The notes under the pieces are model-generated. The model saw only the letters and a program-made list of their open reading frames with translations, did no database searches and was not told the DNA's origin. A stretch of DNA of 22,668 nucleotides, taken from positions 1 to 22,668 of the forward strand of contig CAVQGX010000068.1 of NCBI GenBank assembly GCA_963712115.1. The letters are read 5' to 3'. Shown here piece after piece: positions 180 to 13,815 of this stretch (positions are counted from its first letter, which is position 1; the number at the start of each line of letters is the position of its first letter). A program made the position numbers and the translations under genes. Source of the stretch: an uncultured delta proteobacterium. Its GTDB lineage: Bacteria; Desulfobacterota; Syntrophobacteria; BM002.

Positions 180-2642
180 TCACTGTTGTTCACCCCATCC
201 CACTCTCAAAGCCAAGACCACTGCCAATAAATATGCCATAACCGCCAGAGTCAGGACCAGTCGGAAGCCCAGAGACATTGCCAGCAGTACAGTGAGCGGG
301 GCGGCGGCTACAGAGGCAAAGCCGTTTATGCCCCAGGCCCAGGGAAGCAGTCCTGGTGACCACTTTTTCAGAAGCAGCATGCCGGCCGGAAACGGCCAGC
401 CCATTAGAAAAGCCAGCGGTGCCAGAAGAGAGAGGGTAAAAAGAAATCTACCCGCGGTGTTCCAGGTGGAGACTATACCAAGAAGAGCATGGCTCAGCCA
501 AAGGACCAAAGGGGCAACCAGGGCAATACCGACTCCTGCAACGATGATCGCCTGGAGCGGCGAACGGGTCCATTGCTGGCTGCAAAGGCTGCCGCAGCCT
601 GAGAAAAAGAGAAAGCCGCTCAGCACTGCTGCCGCTGCAAGTAGCGGATCGCCCATAAGTAAGGTAAAGCGTTGCATAAGGCTCATTTCCAGGGCCAGGA
701 AACCAAAGCCAAGGAGGAGGAAGTAAAACAAAGCAAGACTAAAGGGTGTGGTCTTCTGTCGGGCCCAAATAAAAAGTGGCAAAAGGAGCAGGAGTATGGC
801 GGCAGCCACTATCTGCACCAAAGAAATAACCAGTACCACGTAACCCAGTTCGAGACGCTGAAACCATAAATTACCGTAACTCTGAATGAACTTGGGCAGG
901 GAGCGCCAACGAAAGAAGTCAAAGAAATAAGGACGGTCATCGGTGGCAGGTTTTACATTATAGGCCCAATCCTTGAAGAACTCTTCCCTATCTGCCGAGA
1001 AGATTTTGTCTGCTGCGAGCTGAAAGAAGGATGCTTTACTACCTGGAGGGGTCAAAAGCTGATTAAAGGGTTTTCTGCTGCTGGGGTCAAACCCGGCAAG
1101 AGTGTCAATGTCCAACCAGAGCTCGTCGCTGATTTCTACCAACGCTTGAACCTGCGTGGGCTGAAAAGGCTGGCGCGACGCTAGGGTGCAGACTGCCAGA
1201 TGGTTGCGCAATTGGGCGAGGGAGTCCGGTGGCTGACGAATTCCAACTTTTTCCATGGCCTCCGCCAAGGTGGCGAGAATCTTGATATTGTCCCTCGGCG
1301 GAGACTGAAGCCCCCTGGTAATGGTTAGAAGGCCAAGGGGGGTCAGGTGTTCCAGGCAGCGGGCCATGCCTTCAACGGTTAACAGATAGTTTTCGTGGAG
1401 CGAAAGCAGGCCGCTTATCCCGGCGGCCATAGACTCAGCACTGGCCAGCTGAATGATGTCGAAATGTTCATTGGAGTACTCGAGATAATGCCGGGGTGAG
1501 GCTAGGTGAATTTCCAGGTCACTGCCTTTTAAACTCTGCCCGCCAAGGTTTACCAGAGGACCTTTGAAAAGATCAAGTATTTGAGGGTTTTCCAGAACCA
1601 TGGTAATTTGGCTCGCGCCATAGCGCCTGGCCAGCCAAATATTCACACCGCTGGTCTCACCCAAGAGCAAGACCTTGGCGCCAGGGAGAAGCCTATATGC
1701 GACTGACATTGGGGTGTGGTCCAAAATAGCGGCTCCGGTTTGATCTTTAATACGGAAAATGGGGCCGGCAGTGTCGCCGTCCACCAACAAGAGAGCCTGA
1801 GTGGGGGGAAGAGTCGTGGCTGTAAGGCCGGCAAAAAGAGTATAGTGCAGGCGAGGAGAACTAAATACGTCAAGTCTCCCTCTTGGGCTGTGACGAGTGA
1901 CCAGATGTTGCGCGTCGCCCTGCTGCTCCCAGCGTTGAAGCTCTGCCAGCATCTTATGCGGGTCTATTCGCATGGGCATTGATAAGGTAGTGAGATCGAG
2001 AACTAGGAATAGACCGACAAGCAAAGGGATGACTACTTGTCGCCATAGGTTTTTGTCTTCTGCCTCCGTCCTCCAGAGGAAGACCGAGGCCCAGATCAGA
2101 AGTCCAGCCGCCTGAATGATTCGTGCCGGTGGCAACCACATCATTAACCCTAAGGCGATGACAGGTCCTACACCGCTGCCTAGTAGGTTGGCCCCGTAGA
2201 CCAGGTGAATCGAGGAAGAAAAACGAATAAGGGCCAGACCTATGAGGACACCGGCAAAGAGGAAGGGCAGAAAAATCAGGGCCTGGTAACAAAGGAGATA
2301 GAAAAGTTGCTCTCCACTGAACATGACGTACTGCATGTTGAGAGGAAGGACTTCGGCCAGACGGAAACAGAGGGTAACACTGCTAGCCAGTCCAAGAGTA
2401 AGGCCACGGCACCACGGAAGAAAACGGGGGAGCAGACGAGAGGAGAATAGACCCAACCAGGTTCCGCTGGCTCCAAAACCGAGAAGAGCCAAGCCCACCA
2501 CAAGGTAAGCAAAGTGATGCCAGCGGGAGATGGCAAGGGTTCTCATAAGGGCCACTTGCAGGCCCAACACCGAAGCAGAAATGACCGCCACAGCTAGCAG
2601 TTCCCGCATTTTTGGCTTGTCAGTCGACGAAAAGTGACTCAT
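180..2642 (-). CDS. Large polytopic membrane protein with central spermidine-synthase/class I SAM-methyltransferase-like domain
   Basis: 820-aa ORF with hydrophobic helix bundles at both ends flanking a soluble domain. The domain has segments typical of fused membrane/spermidine-synthase-like proteins: SPRGRLDV, KVLLLGETSG, FDIIQL, ENYLLTVEG..LEHLTPLGLL, PATDDRPYFF and WAWGINGFASV. RBS-like AAGGGAG precedes the ATG. Confidence 0.75.
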   Translation of the reverse strand: MSHFSSTDKPKMRELLAVAVISASVLGLQVALMRTLAISRWHHFAYLVVGLALLGFGASGTWLGLFSSRLLPRFLPWCRGLTLGLASSVTLCFRLAEVLPLNMQYVMFSGEQLFYLLCYQALIFLPFLFAGVLIGLALIRFSSSIHLVYGANLLGSGVGPVIALGLMMWLPPARIIQAAGLLIWASVFLWRTEAEDKNLWRQVVIPLLVGLFLVLDLTTLSMPMRIDPHKMLAELQRWEQQGDAQHLVTRHSPRGRLDVFSSPRLHYTLFAGLTATTLPPTQALLLVDGDTAGPIFRIKDQTGAAILDHTPMSVAYRLLPGAKVLLLGETSGVNIWLARRYGASQITMVLENPQILDLFKGPLVNLGGQSLKGSDLEIHLASPRHYLEYSNEHFDIIQLASAESMAAGISGLLSLHENYLLTVEGMARCLEHLTPLGLLTITRGLQSPPRDNIKILATLAEAMEKVGIRQPPDSLAQLRNHLAVCTLASRQPFQPTQVQALVEISDELWLDIDTLAGFDPSSRKPFNQLLTPPGSKASFFQLAADKIFSADREEFFKDWAYNVKPATDDRPYFFDFFRWRSLPKFIQSYGNLWFQRLELGYVVLVISLVQIVAAAILLLLLPLFIWARQKTTPFSLALFYFLLLGFGFLALEMSLMQRFTLLMGDPLLAAAAVLSGFLFFSGCGSLCSQQWTRSPLQAIIVAGVGIALVAPLVLWLSHALLGIVSTWNTAGRFLFTLSLLAPLAFLMGWPFPAGMLLLKKWSPGLLPWAWGINGFASVAAAPLTVLLAMSLGFRLVLTLAVMAYLLAVVLALRVGWGEQQ

Positions 2643-2696
2643 GGAGCTCCCTTATCTGGGAGAAAGAATATCCACGAAGGGCCCAAAGGATTCAGT

Positions 2697-2817
2697 GATG
2701 TGGGATGTGTGATATGGGATATGGGATGTGAGAAGAGACAAGAGTGTATTTCCGCACATCTCAAATCTCACATCGCACATCTGTTATCTCTCTGTGATCT
2801 CTGCGTACTCTGTGGTT
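2697..2817. repeat. Degenerate 7-mer tandem tracts in inverted arrangement plus a 9-mer tract
   Basis: Left arm GATGTGG-GATGTGT-GATATGG-GATATGG-GATGTGA (2697-2731) is complementary to right arm CGCACAT-CTCAAAT-CTCACAT-CGCACAT (2753-2780). A 9-mer tract CTCTGTGAT-CTCTGCGTA-CTCTGTGGT follows. Confidence 0.8.
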
Positions 2818-2830
2818 AATCCCCCGGCCG

Positions 2831-3643
2831 TCATCGCTGTTCCCGAATGGCGCCGGTCATTGGGACGAAGCGGACCGGAAGTAGTTCGTTGGTGAGAACT
2901 CTTCCCTCCTTGTCTTTGGTCACCACCATCAGCCGCTGGACCTCATAGACACCTCCAACTGGGATCACCATGCGGCCTCCTTGTCGAAGTTGGGCAATCA
3001 AAGGGGGCGGAATGTGTCCGGCAGCACAGGTAACAATGATCCCATCGAAAGGACCCTCTTCAGGCCAGCCGAAATAGCCGTCACCTATTCTCACCTTTAC
3101 CGTCTGGTAGCCCAGCTCTTGCAGCCTTTCTCTGGCTTCGTTAGCCAAAGGGGTGATGATTTCCATGGTTAAAACCTGGGGGGTAATCTCAGAGAGCACT
3201 GCCGCCTGGTAGCCACTACCCGTACCTATCTCTAACACCTTCGAATTTGGTTTCAGTTGGAGAGCTTCGGTCATAAGGGCGACAATGTAAGGCTGAGAGA
3301 TGGTCTGGCCGTGGCCTATGGGAAGAGGGTGATCCTCATGGGCCATAAGCTTTAATGACCAGGGGACGAAGAGGTGACGGGGCACCTGGCGCATGGCCTC
3401 CAAGACCTCGCTGTCACGGATTGAGGGGCTCCGCTGAACCATCTGGGTCTGGACCATGTGGGCCCGTTCTTCCCCAAACTCTGAAAAGCGAGGCCGTGTC
3501 CAGCTATTCTCGGCAGACCCTGAAGATTGAATTTTTTCATCGGCTTGACTGAACGCACGGGTCCGTGGTGAACAAATCAAGAGGAAGAAGCCCCCTAGGA
3601 TCACAGTGACTGTGGTGAACCGGATCAACTTACTCAGCTTCAT
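2831..3643 (-). CDS. pcm: Protein-L-isoaspartate(D-aspartate) O-methyltransferase with N-terminal signal/transmembrane extension
   Basis: PIMT motifs VPRHLFVP, PLPIGHGQTISQPYIVALMT, VLEIGTGSGYQAAVL, GDGYFGWPEEGPFDGIIVT, GGRMVIPVG and VRFVPMTG. About 55 extra N-terminal residues start with basic residues followed by a hydrophobic stretch. Confidence 0.95.
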   Translation of the reverse strand: MKLSKLIRFTTVTVILGGFFLLICSPRTRAFSQADEKIQSSGSAENSWTRPRFSEFGEERAHMVQTQMVQRSPSIRDSEVLEAMRQVPRHLFVPWSLKLMAHEDHPLPIGHGQTISQPYIVALMTEALQLKPNSKVLEIGTGSGYQAAVLSEITPQVLTMEIITPLANEARERLQELGYQTVKVRIGDGYFGWPEEGPFDGIIVTCAAGHIPPPLIAQLRQGGRMVIPVGGVYEVQRLMVVTKDKEGRVLTNELLPVRFVPMTGAIREQR

Positions 3644-3698
3644 GGTACTAAAGTGGTTGTGGCAGGTTATTAAAGGTTATTTTCTCTTTGTATAAGGC

Positions 3699-3728
3699 AA
3701 GATAACAGAGGCTCTTCAAGCGGGTCAA
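3699..3728 (-). promoter_or_regulatory. Putative sigma70 promoter for pcm
   Basis: Minus strand reads TTGACC-N18-TATCTT with a TGn extended -10 motif. Confidence 0.45.
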
Positions 3729-3745
3729 GGAGATGTAGTTGGGGT

Positions 3746-3842
3746 GATGGCGTAATGGAGTAATGGAGTAATGAAAAATCAGAGAGTTGATAGACTTAAA
3801 AATTATCCCAATACTCCAACACTCCAGTACTCCAATACTCCA
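3746..3842. repeat. Inverted 8-mer tandem tracts
   Basis: (TAATGGAG)-type units at 3746-3773 and complementary (ATACTCCA)-type units at 3808-3842. Confidence 0.8.
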
Positions 3843-3860
3843 GACAAATAGCTCTGAGAT

Positions 3861-3889
3861 TTGACTGATGCTCAGCGAGTGGTTAACTT
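3861..3889 (+). promoter_or_regulatory. Putative sigma70 promoter for the small Cys-rich ORF
   Basis: TTGACT (3861-3866)-N17-TAACTT (3884-3889), about 30 nt upstream of the ATG. Confidence 0.55.
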
Positions 3890-3921
3890 AACTACTAATA
3901 AAGACTGAGGAGGTGAAGCGC

Positions 3922-4056
3922 ATGGAAAGCGATTTTACTCGTTCTCCTTTGGCCCACGAGGAGGATTGTGACTGTTGTTGCGGCTGTGATAGCTTTGCTG
4001 AAAAAGAAGACTATCCCAAGGATGAGGAGGGAAATCCCATTTACCGGCCATTTTGA
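3922..4056 (+). CDS. Small acidic Cys-rich protein, 44 aa (MESDFTRSPLAHEEDCDCCCGCDSFAEKEDYPKDEEGNPIYRPF)
   Basis: Translated by hand; it is shorter than anything in the ORF track. A strong Shine-Dalgarno AGGAGGTGA lies 5 nt before the ATG, with a promoter upstream and an intrinsic terminator 22 nt after the TGA. Confidence 0.75.
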   Translation: MESDFTRSPLAHEEDCDCCCGCDSFAEKEDYPKDEEGNPIYRPF

Positions 4057-4078
4057 ACGAGAATATACCTGACAACGC

Positions 4079-4106
4079 AAAAGGCCCGCTTAGGCGGGCC
4101 TTTTTT
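4079..4106. terminator. Bidirectional rho-independent terminator
   Basis: AAAAGGCCCGC-TTAG-GCGGGCCTTTTTT: a perfect GC stem with T6 on the + strand and T4 on the - strand. Confidence 0.9.
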
Positions 4107-4122
4107 CCTCACTTCTCACCCC

Positions 4123-4198
4123 AAAAAGCAGCGGACCCGAGTAACCCCTGCTACCGCATGATGACTATCACAGCAGCGTGCGAGCTTCTCGGGTCCAC
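4123..4198 (-). ncRNA. Candidate small rod-like hairpin RNA of unknown family
   Basis: Minus strand reads GUGGACCCGAG-AAGCUCGCACGCUGCUGUGAUAGUCAUCAUGCGGUAGCAGGGGUUA-CUCGGGUCCGC-UGC-UUUUU. It has an 11-bp closing stem and G-U-rich inner helices that favour this strand. A promoter sits exactly upstream and a U5 tract ends it. Confidence 0.5.
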
Positions 4199-4204
4199 TT
4201 CTTT

Positions 4205-4234
4205 AGACTAATGCATATGAGCTGTCTGAGTCAA
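4205..4234 (-). promoter_or_regulatory. Putative sigma70 promoter for the candidate ncRNA
   Basis: Minus strand reads TTGACT-N18-TAGTCT. The predicted start (~4198-4199) coincides with the first base of the hairpin. Confidence 0.5.
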
Positions 4235-4272
4235 GGAGAAAGTCTGCCTTGGCTCGAGCCTTGAAACCTGGC

Positions 4273-6123
4273 CTAAAATACTGTTCTTGCCAATTCCCAC
4301 ACTTTGGGCGATCGCCACAATCTGGATTTAAACAGTTCCCGGTGATGAATAAATTCTTTGGGCAATCGATCGAAAAACTTGTCAAAAAGCTCTTCATGTG
4401 ATCTGGCCTCAATCACTGATTGCTCACGATCAACAGCCATGATTTCATAGAATATCTCTGGATTGTAATCCAACCCTTCCCAATGGATGTCTTCATGACG
4501 TGGCATATAGCCCAGGGGACTCTCTACCCCACGAGCACGACCATGAACCCGGTCCACAATCCACTTGAGAACCCGCATGTTCTCGCCAAACCCGGGCCAG
4601 AGAAATTTACCTTTTTCATCCTTCCGAAACCAATTGACTCGAAAAATCCGAGGGTGGTTGGACAGAAGTCGACCCATGTTCAGCCAGTGATTCCAGTAGG
4701 CTGCCATGTTGTAGCCACAAAACGGCAACATCGCCATGGGATCTCTCCTCATGGGTGGGAGAGCATCTTCAGCCGCTGCGGTTGCCTCGGATCCCATGGT
4801 AGCGGCCAGATAAACTCCATGTGCCCAATTAAAGGCTTGAAAGACGAGAGGAACATTTCTGCTCATTCGTCCACCGAAGATGAATGCACCAACCGGTACT
4901 CCGTCTGGGTCATCCCAGGCGGGATCGAAACTTGGGCACTGGGCAATTGGCGCTGTGAACCTGGCATTTGGATGAGCCGCCGGCCTGCCGCTATCCGGAG
5001 TCCAATCCTGTCCCGTCCAGTCAATCAGGTGGGCCGGAACCTCATCAGTCATGCCCTCCCACCACACATCACCTTCATCTGTGAGGGCCACGTTAGTGAA
5101 AATGCAATTTTCGGTCAGGGTCAACATGGCATTGGGGTTGGAGTTCATCGAAGTACCTGGGGCCACGCCAAAAAATCCGGCCTCAGGGTTGATGGCCCGC
5201 AAGGTCCCATCTGGCCCGGGTTTAATCCAGGCGATGTCGTCACCAACGGTGGTAATCTTCCAGCCTTCGAATCCTTTCGGTGGAACCAGCATGGCGAAGT
5301 TAGTTTTGCCGCAGGCGCTGGGGAAAGCCCCGGTCACATAGGTTTTTTCCCCCTCGGGGCTTTCCACTCCCACAATCAACATGTGTTCAGCCAACCATCC
5401 TTCATCTCTGGCCATGACAGAAGCAATTCTGAGAGCGAAACATTTCTTGCCTAAAAGAGCATTGCCACCATAACCGCTACCAAAGGAGTAAATGGACCGC
5501 TCTTCAGGAAAGTGGCTGATGTAGGTGTTTTCCGGATTACATGGCCAGGGCACATCCTTTTGACCCGGTTCCAGAGGAGCGCCCACAGAATGCAGGCAGC
5601 GGACAAAGGCTCCTCGGTCTCCGAGAACCTTAAGCGCAGCATTTCCCATTCGCGTCATAATGCGCATATTAACCACCACGTAAGGGGAATCGGTGATCTC
5701 CACGCCGATATGGGCAATTGGTGAGCCCAGAGGCCCCATGCTAAAGGGAATGACATACATGGTGCGCCCGCGCATGCAGCCGTCAAAAAGAGAATGCAAT
5801 TTTTCCTTCATTTCAGTTGGAGGCATCCAGTTATTCGTGGGGCCCGCGTCAGACTTATTGGTGGGGCATACGAAGGTGCGACTTTCCATTCTGGCCACAT
5901 CTTTCGGGTCCGAACGGCAGAGAAAACTGTTGGGACGCTTTTCTTCATTGAGGCGAATAAACGTTCCGCTTTCAACCATTTGGTTACATAGCTCGTCGTA
6001 TTCCTCCTGGGAACCGTCACAGATATAAACCTGATCCGGTTTACAAAGAGAAGCGATTGTTTGAATCCAGTTGAGGAGGTTCTCGTTGTAGGTTTTTGCC
6101 CCGTCGACTTGTATGTCGTTCAT
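4273..6123 (-). CDS. pckG: Phosphoenolpyruvate carboxykinase (GTP)
   Basis: 616 aa with the signature FPSACGKTN plus [52 protein letters not shown] and VNWFRKD. GGAGG RBS. Confidence 0.97.
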
Positions 6124-6258: not shown

Positions 6259-6335
6259 GGCAGCAGGCAGCAGGCAGCAGGCAGCAGGCAGCAGGCAGCA
6301 GGCAGCAGGCAGCAGGCAGCAGGCAGCAGGCAGCA
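6259..6335 (+). repeat. Perfect heptamer microsatellite (GGCAGCA)x11
   Basis: 77 bp, counted directly as 11 identical units. Confidence 0.95.
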
Positions 6336-6344
6336 TGGCATCCA

Positions 6345-7297: not shown

Positions 7298-7741
7298 CTA
7301 CTCTACCTGCTGTGCCTCCAAGAAAAGACCTTTGGAGAGAGCAGCAAAGAATTGTTGGTAAGGTTCAGGATCTTCTACTGTTTGCAGATTATACTGTGCA
7401 TTGCAACGTACAATCATTTGCAGGTCTCCCCTGGGCCTGACAGATACAGTTACCCGCAACACGTACCTTTTGAGTTTTGTAGCGGTCACAGTTCCGAGAG
7501 TCTCCTCGGCATCGTCAATGACGAACCCCAAATCCTGCAAGGTAGCTATGATGGTGCGCAGGAGAAACTGGCGATCATTAGTATCGTATACCCGGCTCTG
7601 TATGCTCCGGAGTTTTACCTGAGATTCCTGCGCCTGAAGAATGTCTTTTTGTTTCGCTGCACAAGAACAAATGCTCATCGCAACAATTAGACTGGATATG
7701 ACAGCCACGTATCTAATCATAGCCATACCCCTATATTTCAT
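7298..7741 (-). CDS. Hypothetical lipoprotein, paralogue of the adjacent 7731-8267 gene
   Basis: Hydrophobic N-terminus ending in SICSC (lipobox-like). It shares LRxxQxRx(Y/F)xTND, LQDxG(F/Y)xI and DPxxYQxFFAxLSKxxFLxA with its neighbour. The true start may be the ATG at 7720. Confidence 0.75.
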   Translation of the reverse strand: MKYRGMAMIRYVAVISSLIVAMSICSCAAKQKDILQAQESQVKLRSIQSRVYDTNDRQFLLRTIIATLQDLGFVIDDAEETLGTVTATKLKRYVLRVTVSVRPRGDLQMIVRCNAQYNLQTVEDPEPYQQFFAALSKGLFLEAQQVE

Positions 7742-8267
7742 GTGCTGTCAGAAAGATAGACTTGGAAAGTTTAGCGAAAAACTCCTGATAGATTTGAGGA
7801 TCGTTAAGTTGCTCGCATTTCGACACCTGATTATGATTGTTCCAGACGACGTGCTGGAAAGTGACACGAACGGCGATCCTTTGGTCGTCGATGGGCTTTG
7901 TCGCTAATGATGCTTCCACTCTTTGTCTCTTATCCCAGGGGACCGGAGCGCCAAGGCACACTCCCAATACAATCGAGCCAGCAACCTGACCAGGGTTTGT
8001 GACATCCCTGTCCCGTGAACTCACTATGACGCCGCATGAAATTTCACTCTCTTCGATGGTGTAGCCCGAATCTTGGAGTACTGCCGCAGACGCGGTAAGT
8101 AACATCTTTTCATCATTTGTCTCAAATATCCGCGTTTGCAACTGTCTGTCTCTGAGAGAGTCGGGTGATAACGCCATCGCATCTCTCGGAATCTTGTGTA
8201 CGCAAGCTACAAGAAAGAAGATTAACAAGGCCATAATGAGGCCAGTTGCAGCTGCCTTACGTGACAT
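7731..8267 (-). CDS. Hypothetical lipoprotein
   Basis: Signal peptide MSRKAAATGLIMALLIFFLVAC with a canonical LVAC lipobox. GAAGGA RBS. Paralogous to the downstream gene. Confidence 0.8.
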   Translation of the reverse strand: MSRKAAATGLIMALLIFFLVACVHKIPRDAMALSPDSLRDRQLQTRIFETNDEKMLLTASAAVLQDSGYTIEESEISCGVIVSSRDRDVTNPGQVAGSIVLGVCLGAPVPWDKRQRVEASLATKPIDDQRIAVRVTFQHVVWNNHNQVSKCEQLNDPQIYQEFFAKLSKSIFLTAHEI

Positions 8268-8285
8268 GGTCCTTCATGTCCTTTG

Positions 8286-8753
8286 CTAGAACCTGCTTGA
8301 ATGGTATGCGAAGTCTCGTACCATCTTTTGTTCATCAAATTTGATCAAGACCGTGAGAGTCCTTTGTGTCTTGGATTCAGCACCGGCAGATTTGCCGTAA
8401 CTACCGCCTGCTCCACCTCCCGCAAGAACATCACCTGATAAACCACCAACCAGAAGGCCAACAATTACTCCTCCCGAGCTTCTCGAGTAGGTGACGTCGG
8501 TAGATATCTTGTCGTAGATCCAGACCTCTCGACCTTCAGCATCCGTGGTAACTATGTTCGGTGATCCCAATACTTCCGCGACTTCAGCCCCTGGCATACC
8601 TTTTCGTATCTCCCTTTGCACCGTCCCCACTGTCATCTGACGTTCTTGGGCACCGTGGGTGTCTTGGTAATGTTGCTGCGCGGTCATACATCCGTTTAAC
8701 CAGACACCTATCCAGATTACTGAAAGTATTTGCGCTATTCTTAAATTTTGCAT
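8286..8753 (-). CDS. SmpA/OmlA (BamE)-like lipoprotein
   Basis: LNGC lipobox, then IRKGMPGAEVAEVLGSP...WIY and C-terminal TLTVLIKFDEQKMV, which fits the SmpA/OmlA/BLIP-like pattern. It has a Gly-rich hydrophobic insert. I moved the start from 8852 to the ATG at 8753 (AGAGGA RBS, gives a proper signal peptide). Confidence 0.7.
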   Translation of the reverse strand: MQNLRIAQILSVIWIGVWLNGCMTAQQHYQDTHGAQERQMTVGTVQREIRKGMPGAEVAEVLGSPNIVTTDAEGREVWIYDKISTDVTYSRSSGGVIVGLLVGGLSGDVLAGGGAGGSYGKSAGAESKTQRTLTVLIKFDEQKMVRDFAYHSSRF

Positions 8754-8898
8754 TGCAGATCCTCTGCCATAAGGGTGGAAAGTGAAATTGCAAAAATAAC
8801 CAGATTCTTTTTTCCACATCTTACGCAAAGGTCGTTCCAAATAAACCGCCAACCCGCCACTTATAAAATCACACGGTTTATCAGGGGCTGGATGCTGC

Positions 8899-13723: not shown

Positions 13724-13815
13724 AGGGCACAGGGCTTAAGGCAAAAGGCGCAAGGCAAAGATAAAGCGATTCAATAGTGAGTTACCTTGCGCCCTGAGCC
13801 CTTGTGCCTTGAGCC
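13724..13815. repeat. Inverted degenerate heptamer tracts
   Basis: AGGGCAC-AGGGCTT-AAGGCAA-AAGGCGC-AAGGCAA, followed by the complementary CCTTGCG-CCCTGAG-CCCTTGT-GCCTTGA-GCC. Confidence 0.8.

Follow-up and report, generated by a model that had tools for sequence, protein, structure and literature searches.

The cysteine-rich protein MymT is known from a single bacterial lineage. It is a 4.9-kDa Cu(I) protein encoded by a non-annotated small open reading frame (ORF) (PMC7558416); the same source states that metallothioneins fold only upon metal binding and that Cox17 is absent from prokaryotes. A further thiolate site lies in the disordered N terminus of Escherichia coli HypB, whose CxxCGC motif binds Ni(II) with picomolar affinity through three thiolates (PMC12284835). 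Here we describe a gene for a 44-residue, acidic, Cys-rich peptide that is encoded in a stretch of 22,668 nucleotides (contig CAVQGX010000068.1, positions 1 to 22,668 of the forward strand; "the window" below) from an uncultured delta proteobacterium of the order BM002 (Desulfobacterota; Syntrophobacteria), an uncultured lineage presumed to reduce sulfate in salt-marsh and other sediments (PMC10686091). In its presumed function the peptide most resembles the small bacterial metallothioneins or metallochaperones.

Like MymT, whose gene annotation had overlooked (PMC7558416), the peptide has a mass of about 5 kDa, is Cys-rich and cytoplasmic, and comes from a small ORF. It differs from MymT in having only five Cys and one His, in being far more acidic, in that neither copper induction nor nearby copper genes were seen, and in showing no sequence similarity to anything outside BM002 among 5.8 and 1.84 billion proteins. 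With the SmtA/BmtA proteins (PF02069), which bind Zn or Cu via Cys and His (PMC7558416), it shares small size and a cytoplasmic location, but its ligands are fewer and are packed into 11 residues, and no zinc-finger-like fold is predicted. It does not belong to that family, since hmmscan finds no Pfam-A family at E <= 1 and the AlphaFold2 model is without a folded core. The E. coli HypB site (PMC12284835) is likewise disordered and has a Cys-Gly-Cys with a further Cys just upstream and acidic residues nearby, but HypB uses its free N-terminal amine, which is impossible in the peptide, where the cluster starts at residue 16. The spacing also differs (CxCCCGC in the peptide, not CxxCGC), and the peptide is free-standing. 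Cox17, a eukaryotic copper chaperone, is a helical hairpin that binds Cu(I) through a CCxC motif; C19-C20-G21-C22 of the peptide has the CCxC spacing, but the peptide has no Pfam match and its fold differs from that of Cox17. Nor is it a rubredoxin or desulforedoxin, which are built on two knuckles (CxxC twice, or CxxC plus CC), having no Pfam match at E <= 1 and a single Cys block. It thus falls outside every family for which a membership test could be run (SmtA/BmtA, rubredoxin and, as described below, zinc-binding anti-sigma factors, precursors of ribosomally synthesised and post-translationally modified peptides [RiPPs] and the RiPP systems that depend on protein-L-isoaspartate methyltransferase [PIMT]), and we therefore file it as a new protein family.

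A Cys cluster of this density proves nothing by itself, since at least five Cys within seven residues occur 12 times in the stop-free stretches of at least 30 aa in the six-frame translations of the genome; it is conservation that shows the gene to be real. Coding sequences (CDS) were collected from relatives and from public genome and metagenome contigs, and the ORF was obtained from 77 of 78 loci (locus L048 did not fit the search pattern). The 39 distinct peptides that these encode are all 44 aa long, and the ATG is identical in all. Among the 50 distinct CDS, 23, 16 and 42 of the 44 columns vary at codon positions 1, 2 and 3, respectively, and the ratio of nonsynonymous to synonymous change per site (pN/pS) is 0.156 in the sense frame, compared with 1.41 and 1.34 in the two shifted sense frames. 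A smaller set of 17 CDS gives a summed pairwise pN/pS of 0.143, variable columns of 14, 10 and 40 of 44, and shifted-frame ratios of 1.77 and 1.29. In-frame purifying selection and the conservation of start, ribosome-binding site and length across relatives are what is expected of a genuine small ORF, and homologues exist as predicted proteins in public sets (30 clusters, three with NCBI as source). The earlier note on this DNA, made from the sequence alone, had proposed looking in relatives for a conserved frame and Cys cluster with synonymous-biased change; both are clearly present, which supports a real, translated miniprotein.

The alternative that no protein is made, with the conservation due to an RNA element or to an antisense 61-codon ORF (3895-4080, minus strand) and the Cys cluster due to chance, could draw on the twelve similar clusters just mentioned and on the hydrophobic character of the antisense ORF. 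That ORF is not conserved, however, because the antisense frames are either unconstrained or broken by stops: their pN/pS values are 1.40 (stops in 20 of 50 CDS), 0.28 (stops in 49) and 2.19 (stops in 14), so that the two mostly open frames stand at about 1.4 or above. The third-position bias and the low ratio are confined to the sense frame, and no Rfam family reaches its gathering score here. This alternative is almost certainly wrong.

The peptide gene forms its own transcription unit in all loci compared, and the complete unit that the earlier note had read from the DNA (TTGACT-N17-TAACTT, the Shine-Dalgarno sequence AGGAGGTGA, the ORF and a terminator) is all in place, as listed in Table 1; the -10 hexamer itself occupies 3884-3889, and the ORF translates as MESDFTRSPLAHEEDCDCCCGCDSFAEKEDYPKDEEGNPIYRPF. 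In an alignment of 17 relatives the TTGAC of the -35 hexamer is identical in all 15 rows that can be read (two are N-masked there), with T as the sixth base in 14, and G(A/G)GGTG is kept at the Shine-Dalgarno place in 17 of 17. The terminator hairpin (4079-4104, with its T-run at 4101-4106) has a fold energy of -20.5 kcal/mol (z = -3.42; none of 200 shuffles folds as well), in keeping with the strength ascribed to it before. If changes in the loop are allowed it is kept in 16 of the 17 relatives, and the remaining one (L011) has a different G+C-rich hairpin and T-run at the same place. The -35 hexamer, the AGTGGT block with TAnnTT, the Shine-Dalgarno sequence and the terminator are thus conserved, and the DNA around them diverges.

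Table 1. Features of the peptide gene and of its immediate surroundings (window coordinates)
Feature	Position	Strand	Remark
-35 hexamer TTGACT	3861-3866	+	promoter of the peptide gene; read from the sequence
AGTGGT spacer block, then -10 hexamer TAACTT	3878-3889	+	TAnnTT in most relatives
Shine-Dalgarno sequence AGGAGGTGA	3908-3916	+	5 nt before ATG 3922
CDS of the 44-aa, acidic Cys5-His miniprotein	3922-4056	+	stop TGA 4054-4056
Intrinsic terminator: 11-bp stem, 4-nt loop, T-run	4079-4106	+	fold energy and conservation
pcm paralogue (protein-L-isoaspartate O-methyltransferase) with N-terminal hydrophobic segment	2831-3643	-	PF01135, 6.3e-61; context, no functional link shown
Small RNA candidate, hairpin of about 77 nt, unannotated, conserved	4123-4199	-	convergent to the peptide gene
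Promoter of the small RNA candidate	-35 4229-4234, -10 4205-4210	-	alignment of 15 relatives

One listing of the ORFs starts this frame at an upstream GTG (3913..4056, 47 aa), a codon that is part of the Shine-Dalgarno sequence. All relatives keep the ATG, and we take ATG 3922 as the start. Both the promoter and the terminator of the gene escaped a simple consensus scan. Its rule for a -10 hexamer requires a match at 4 of 6 positions, under which TAACTT falls, and the terminator was probably omitted because some of its T-run is taken up by the stem. The gene is covered by RNA-library contigs that come from three studies (X1, 3811-4025; X2, 3646-3956; X4, 3865-4146), and run X7 gave no contig across the CDS; such contigs give neither transcript ends nor levels, and they lend weak support to transcription. 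The contigs may also stem from contaminating DNA, neighbouring genes being covered similarly. A strong promoter is not established, since by our count only three of the six positions of TAACTT agree with TATAAT. Conservation of frame and signals nevertheless shows that 3922-4056 is a genuine protein-coding gene; it is monocistronic, its own promoter is of the sigma-70 type, its ribosome-binding site is strong and its terminator is intrinsic.

By profile search the gene is present in one copy in 18 of the 22 genomes of the order BM002, including all eight of high quality (completeness >=90%, contamination <=5%); the four genomes without a match are 61-86% complete. The class has five further families, and in 100 of their genomes the same profile finds nothing. 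When 61 related genomes were searched with the protein, intact homologues came from 17 of the 21 other genomes of the same family, and other families gave noise only (E >= 0.057). Among 5.8 billion proteins, a word-indexed search matched 15 when given the single sequence and 30 when given the profile; every one is a member of the peptide family (a few are frameshifted or chimeric), and phmmer against 1.84 billion representatives, with no limit on length, returned five family members and two unrelated repeat proteins but no fused or larger form. Neither Pfam-A nor NCBIfam holds a family for the peptide at E <= 1, the ESM Atlas yielded no usable match and no model of it, no Rfam family came close to its gathering score when 3600-4300 was scanned, and in the library of full-text literature that we searched no paper contains the string CDCCCGC. 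These searches show the gene to be order-specific: it is in nearly all BM002 genomes and nowhere else in the collections searched.

The peptide has Cys at residues 16, 18, 19, 20 and 22, a His at residue 12, and 13 Asp/Glu against 4 Lys/Arg (pI 4.08; grand average of hydropathy -1.07), which agrees with the composition first noticed, five Cys in seven residues with a preceding His and 13 acidic residues of 44. It has no signal peptide. Sixteen positions are invariant in the 39 distinct peptides (M1, P9, L10, H12, C16, D17, C19, C20, C22, A26, P32, D34, E35, P39, R42 and P43), and C18 is replaced in two of them, once by F and once by G. Further database sequences have G or E for D17, A or D for G21 and, once, S for C22, so H12, C16, C19 and C20 are the ligand-like residues constant in every sequence seen, with C18 and C22 nearly invariant. 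The Cys codons themselves alternate between TGT and TGC among relatives. Residues 1-8 and 24-29 are variable. Conservation of a C-terminal block, D-Y-P-K-D-E-E-G-x-P-I-Y/H-R-P-[LF], equals that of the Cys block; part of the family has His in place of Tyr31, and part in place of Tyr41. An AlphaFold2 model from 15 sequences (mean predicted local distance difference test score 60.2, predicted template-modelling score 0.23) contains no helix and no sheet beyond a two-residue bridge, its best-defined stretch being residues 31-40 (about 79), and it fits a peptide that would be disordered without a ligand or partner. A predicted complex of two peptide copies with two Zn scored 0.02, compared with a mark of 0.42, and weighs neither for nor against a homodimer.

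We give roughly even chances to the reading that this is a new family of disordered, thiolate-rich metal-binding miniproteins, metallothionein- or metallochaperone-like, with a C-terminal docking motif. The peptide alone would be disordered, and the block P-L-A-H-x3-C-D-C-C-C-G-C-D would bind one or a few thiophilic metal ions, with Zn(II), Cu(I), Ni(II) or Fe as candidates, at a site made of thiolates or of thiolates and an imidazole, the peptide acting alone or as a small oligomer. It might then buffer metal in the cytoplasm or act there as a metallochaperone, much as a metallothionein would, and the block D-Y-P-K-D-E-E-G-x-P-I-Y/H-R-P-L/F may dock onto a partner that receives or delivers the metal. 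We infer soft-metal coordination by thiolates because dense, invariant Cys and His residues occur in an otherwise disordered peptide and because there are precedents in MymT, in metallothioneins that fold on metal binding and in the CxxCGC Ni(II) site of HypB. In a broad functional sense the traits of a metallothionein (predicted disorder, small size, five Cys in seven residues) are present, the binding itself being a prediction. Of the suggestion in the earlier note that this is a miniprotein that binds metal or Fe-S or carries sulfur, the translated miniprotein stands, by the evidence of selection; the metal, Fe-S or sulfur function is drawn from composition, and neither a family match nor a confident fold nor a metal-linked gene context was found. 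Which metal would be bound cannot be named from the sequence.

A number of observations tell against metal binding. Classical metallothioneins are Lys-rich, and five Cys and one His are few for such a protein. The peptide carries a net charge of about -9, as is more usual in ferredoxin-like electron carriers or in docking peptides. The searches gave no metal-related evidence of any kind, and models of metallothionein, Cox17, rubredoxin and zinc fingers give no match at E <= 1. A profile search of the Protein Data Bank returned only a designed ankyrin without a matching stretch and an acidic bc1 hinge protein at E = 0.16, neither of them meaningful. The eleven neighbour proteins compared, to which the scan was confined and five of which have no family match, include none with a metal-transport or metalloregulator domain. 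Finally, a search of the 4.9-Mb genome for TTGAC[TA]-N9-13-AGTGGTTA matched the peptide gene alone, which gives no regulon and no operator-like motif common to other promoters.

Nickel was considered separately. The thought that the peptide replaces a missing CxxCGC extension of HypB was dropped: HypB is short in the source genome, and of the 82 genomes of the class with a match nearly all have an open frame of about 224-245 aa (N-termini were read individually for the source assembly, G000, only). HypB is thus short in families with the peptide and in families without it, and there is no complementarity.

The conservation pattern also admits a reading in which the metal is not cargo, namely a partner-binding regulatory or adaptor miniprotein with a single structural or redox-sensing Zn site (H12-x3-C16-x2-C19 plus C20 or C22) that shapes or switches the peptide, its acidic C-terminal motif modulating a specific protein. 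The invariant H12-x3-C16-x2-C19 has the HxxxCxxC spacing of zinc-binding anti-sigma (ZAS) factors, in which the motif lies within an anti-sigma domain encoded beside an ECF sigma gene, and the residues that never change are exactly H12, C16, C19 and C20, C18 tolerating F or G. The peptide is strongly acidic, and its second strict block (P32, D34, E35, P39, R42, P43) contains no Cys, resembles a short linear motif and is where the model reaches moderate confidence, which it does nowhere else. Membership in ZAS fails, however, in that no anti-sigma or zinc-finger domain matches at E <= 1 and neither a sigma factor gene nor a regulator is matched among the neighbours in 59 loci. (Neighbours in these loci were recognised only by similarity to eleven proteins of the window, so that unlike genes are invisible, and the loci come from close relatives, some being the same genome in two collections, and are not independent.) In addition, 44 residues are too short for an anti-sigma domain, and no partner has been found. 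We consider an adaptor unlikely, though the likeliest of the rival readings.

Downstream of the peptide gene, the convergent neighbour in the 46 loci that could be assessed is pckG in 32, mtaB in eight and a nitroreductase gene in five, with no match in one; the only matched neighbours in the whole set are MEM820 (the 820-aa membrane protein described below), Pcm, PckG, nitroreductase, MtaB, MnmA, the M24 peptidase and fumarase. The gene is thus set among housekeeping genes. MtaB is an equivalog-level tRNA methylthiotransferase (TIGR01579, 401.3 bits; cut-off 357), and its gene adjoins mnmA. The peptide could accordingly be imagined as an Fe-S cluster or persulfide sulfur carrier for these tRNA thiolation enzymes, rebuilding the auxiliary cluster of MtaB or feeding MnmA. 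In its favour, the eight loci in which mtaB-mnmA directly adjoins include more divergent peptides that end in HRPL, other loci have only pckG and/or the nitroreductase gene between the peptide gene and mtaB, and a small acidic protein resembles ferredoxin-type carriers. The genes are convergent, however, and so are never co-transcribed; close relatives share the gene order of the whole region, which leaves adjacency with little evidential value; and mtaB and mnmA are near-universal, whereas the peptide occurs in one order. Known sulfur relays, moreover, use a single catalytic Cys, and adjacent Cys are poor ligands for one cubane. A sulfur carrier is distinctly unlikely. In some relatives the interval between the nitroreductase gene and mtaB holds three consecutive small ORFs of 147, 178 and 188 aa (7298-8852 in the window, minus strand), which have no Pfam or NCBIfam match; those of 147 and 178 aa are distant paralogues (about 24-26% identity by tblastn).

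On the other side, a pcm gene lies upstream and divergent, as had been noted, in 44 of 44 loci that could be assessed, at a distance of 230-2422 nt (median 313); assessment required at least 900 readable bases upstream, which 15 of the 59 loci lacked, being short or N-masked there. The genome has two PCMT genes, of which the neighbour of the peptide is the second. This Pcm had been called canonical, and by score it is (NF001453, 244.7 bits; cut-off 188), but as a second copy with an N-terminal hydrophobic extension it is not the plain housekeeping enzyme. With it, the gene of an 820-aa polytopic membrane protein (180-2642, minus strand) forms a co-oriented pair at 180-3643, in which pcm is the directly upstream gene. 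The membrane protein has no Pfam or NCBIfam match. Of 121 other genomes of the class, 52 have a homologue of it; for the sister families the count is 34 of 100, and identity outside the order is about 28-36%. In the five sister-family loci that were read, pcm adjoins the membrane protein gene in the same orientation, tblastn finds no match to the peptide, and the small Cys-containing ORFs listed there bear no resemblance to it. An obligatory link between the peptide and this pair is therefore not supported; the peptide gene is an order-specific gene beside an older gene pair. That a methyltransferase that uses S-adenosylmethionine (SAM) for protein repair should be tied to a large membrane protein is an unexplained pairing.

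These neighbours bear on the possibility that the peptide is the precursor of a RiPP or of a peptide-derived cofactor, its Cys/Asp block being modified (thioether, aspartimide/isoaspartate or methylation) by enzymes encoded elsewhere or by the Pcm paralogue with its 820-aa membrane partner. Precursors of the SCIFF/ranthipeptide class, from anaerobes, are about 45 aa long, acidic and dense in Cys (six cysteines), and ranthipeptides use a CxxxD motif; the peptide is of similar size and Cys density, contains the spacing C19-x3-D23, and always has upstream and divergent from it, where this can be assessed, an extra pcm paralogue with a hydrophobic N-terminal extension. It differs from these precursors in having no NCBIfam match to a precursor family and no adjacent radical-SAM/SPASM maturase, and in that its gene occupies a fixed locus of the core genome and not a mobile cluster. 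Among the neighbours compared in the 59 loci, which represent the eleven window proteins and not the ORFs beyond them, there is no radical-SAM/SPASM, lanthipeptide, ATP-grasp, YcaO or peptidase-transporter enzyme and no transporter matched beside the gene, the only radical-SAM neighbour being MtaB. The Pcm, above its canonical cut-off, falls far below those of the RiPP-linked PIMT families (TIGR04364, 142.6 compared with 320; TIGR04188, 127.8 compared with 380) and so outside the PIMT-dependent FxLD systems and ATP-grasp-associated methyltransferases. The pair of pcm and membrane protein gene occurs without a peptide match in the five sister-family loci, the gene behaves as a vertically inherited, single-copy core gene, the peptide is conserved at both ends, unlike a leader-core precursor, and the hydrophobic N terminus of Pcm suggests a compartment other than that of the signal-less peptide. 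The earlier note had already doubted a RiPP, given how canonical this Pcm looked; the Pcm score, the pair without a peptide match and the lack of a matched maturase weaken the idea further, and we regard it as very unlikely.

A related proposal is that the peptide arose in the ancestor of BM002 and has been kept since in nearly all members, not as a simple metal buffer but as the ribosomal precursor of a sulfur-rich, peptide-derived metal cofactor, or as a free-standing, trans-acting metal site (Cys-x-Cys-Cys-Cys-Gly-Cys) that would be handed to an enzyme through the C-terminal docking motif. We know of no stand-alone protein of 44 residues that is a cofactor precursor or trans-acting metal site of this kind, and we consider the proposal a long shot.

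Some further features of the region were observed. Convergent to the peptide gene, and within about 400 nt downstream of it in the loci read, lies the candidate small RNA (sRNA) of Table 1. Its minus-strand promoter has an invariant TTGAC and TAnnnT, 17-18 nt apart, in 15 relatives, and its body is a long hairpin (GGACCCGAG...CUCGGGUCC) followed by a U-run. RNAalifold predicts 23 pairs, four with compensatory changes, and many G-U pairs fit the minus strand only, on which the fold has an energy of -67 kcal/mol (z = -6.1). The element has no Rfam match and is single-copy in the genome. Within the order it is confined to genera g1 and g2 and occurs in 16 of 22 genomes. The peptide gene and the sRNA gene might share the terminator at 4079-4104, and under the proposal above this convergent sRNA, lineage-restricted like the peptide, could belong to the same module.

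Intergenic tandem arrays of 7-8-nt units, often two of opposite orientation, lie at 3747-3773, 3808-3842, 2697-2730/2755-2782, 6259-6340 and 13738-13815. The two between pcm and the peptide gene are ATGGAGTA (3.4 copies) and CCAATACT (4.4 copies), and relatives have different repeat units at this place. A 15-nt stretch of the octamer array has 108 matches in the genome with at most one mismatch; the array draws many unrelated RNA-library contigs, and the high depth at 3712-3939 comes from this dispersed repeat. Two "complete" relatives have 100-N gaps exactly at the octamer array. Elsewhere in the source genome (contig C19 of G000, at about 23107, plus strand) a 71-codon open frame contains MPIYEYLCCCCNSCFETLV; its product looks like a zinc-ribbon regulatory protein of the FmdB type, with CCCCxxC in place of the usual CxxC knuckle.

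Small proteins tend to escape annotation, and very few bacterial lineages are known to have metallothionein-like proteins. The gene described here adds a cleanly validated miniprotein, single-copy and specific to one order, in which the CxCCCxC-His site is unusually dense; it comes from uncultured sulfate reducers of sulfidic, metal-rich sediments. If it does bind metal, it would represent a new family of bacterial thiolate metalloproteins and provide a 44-residue scaffold that is easily synthesised; if it does not, its strict conservation needs another explanation. As a taxonomically restricted gene with a complete and conserved transcription unit, it is in addition useful for the study of the origin of new genes.

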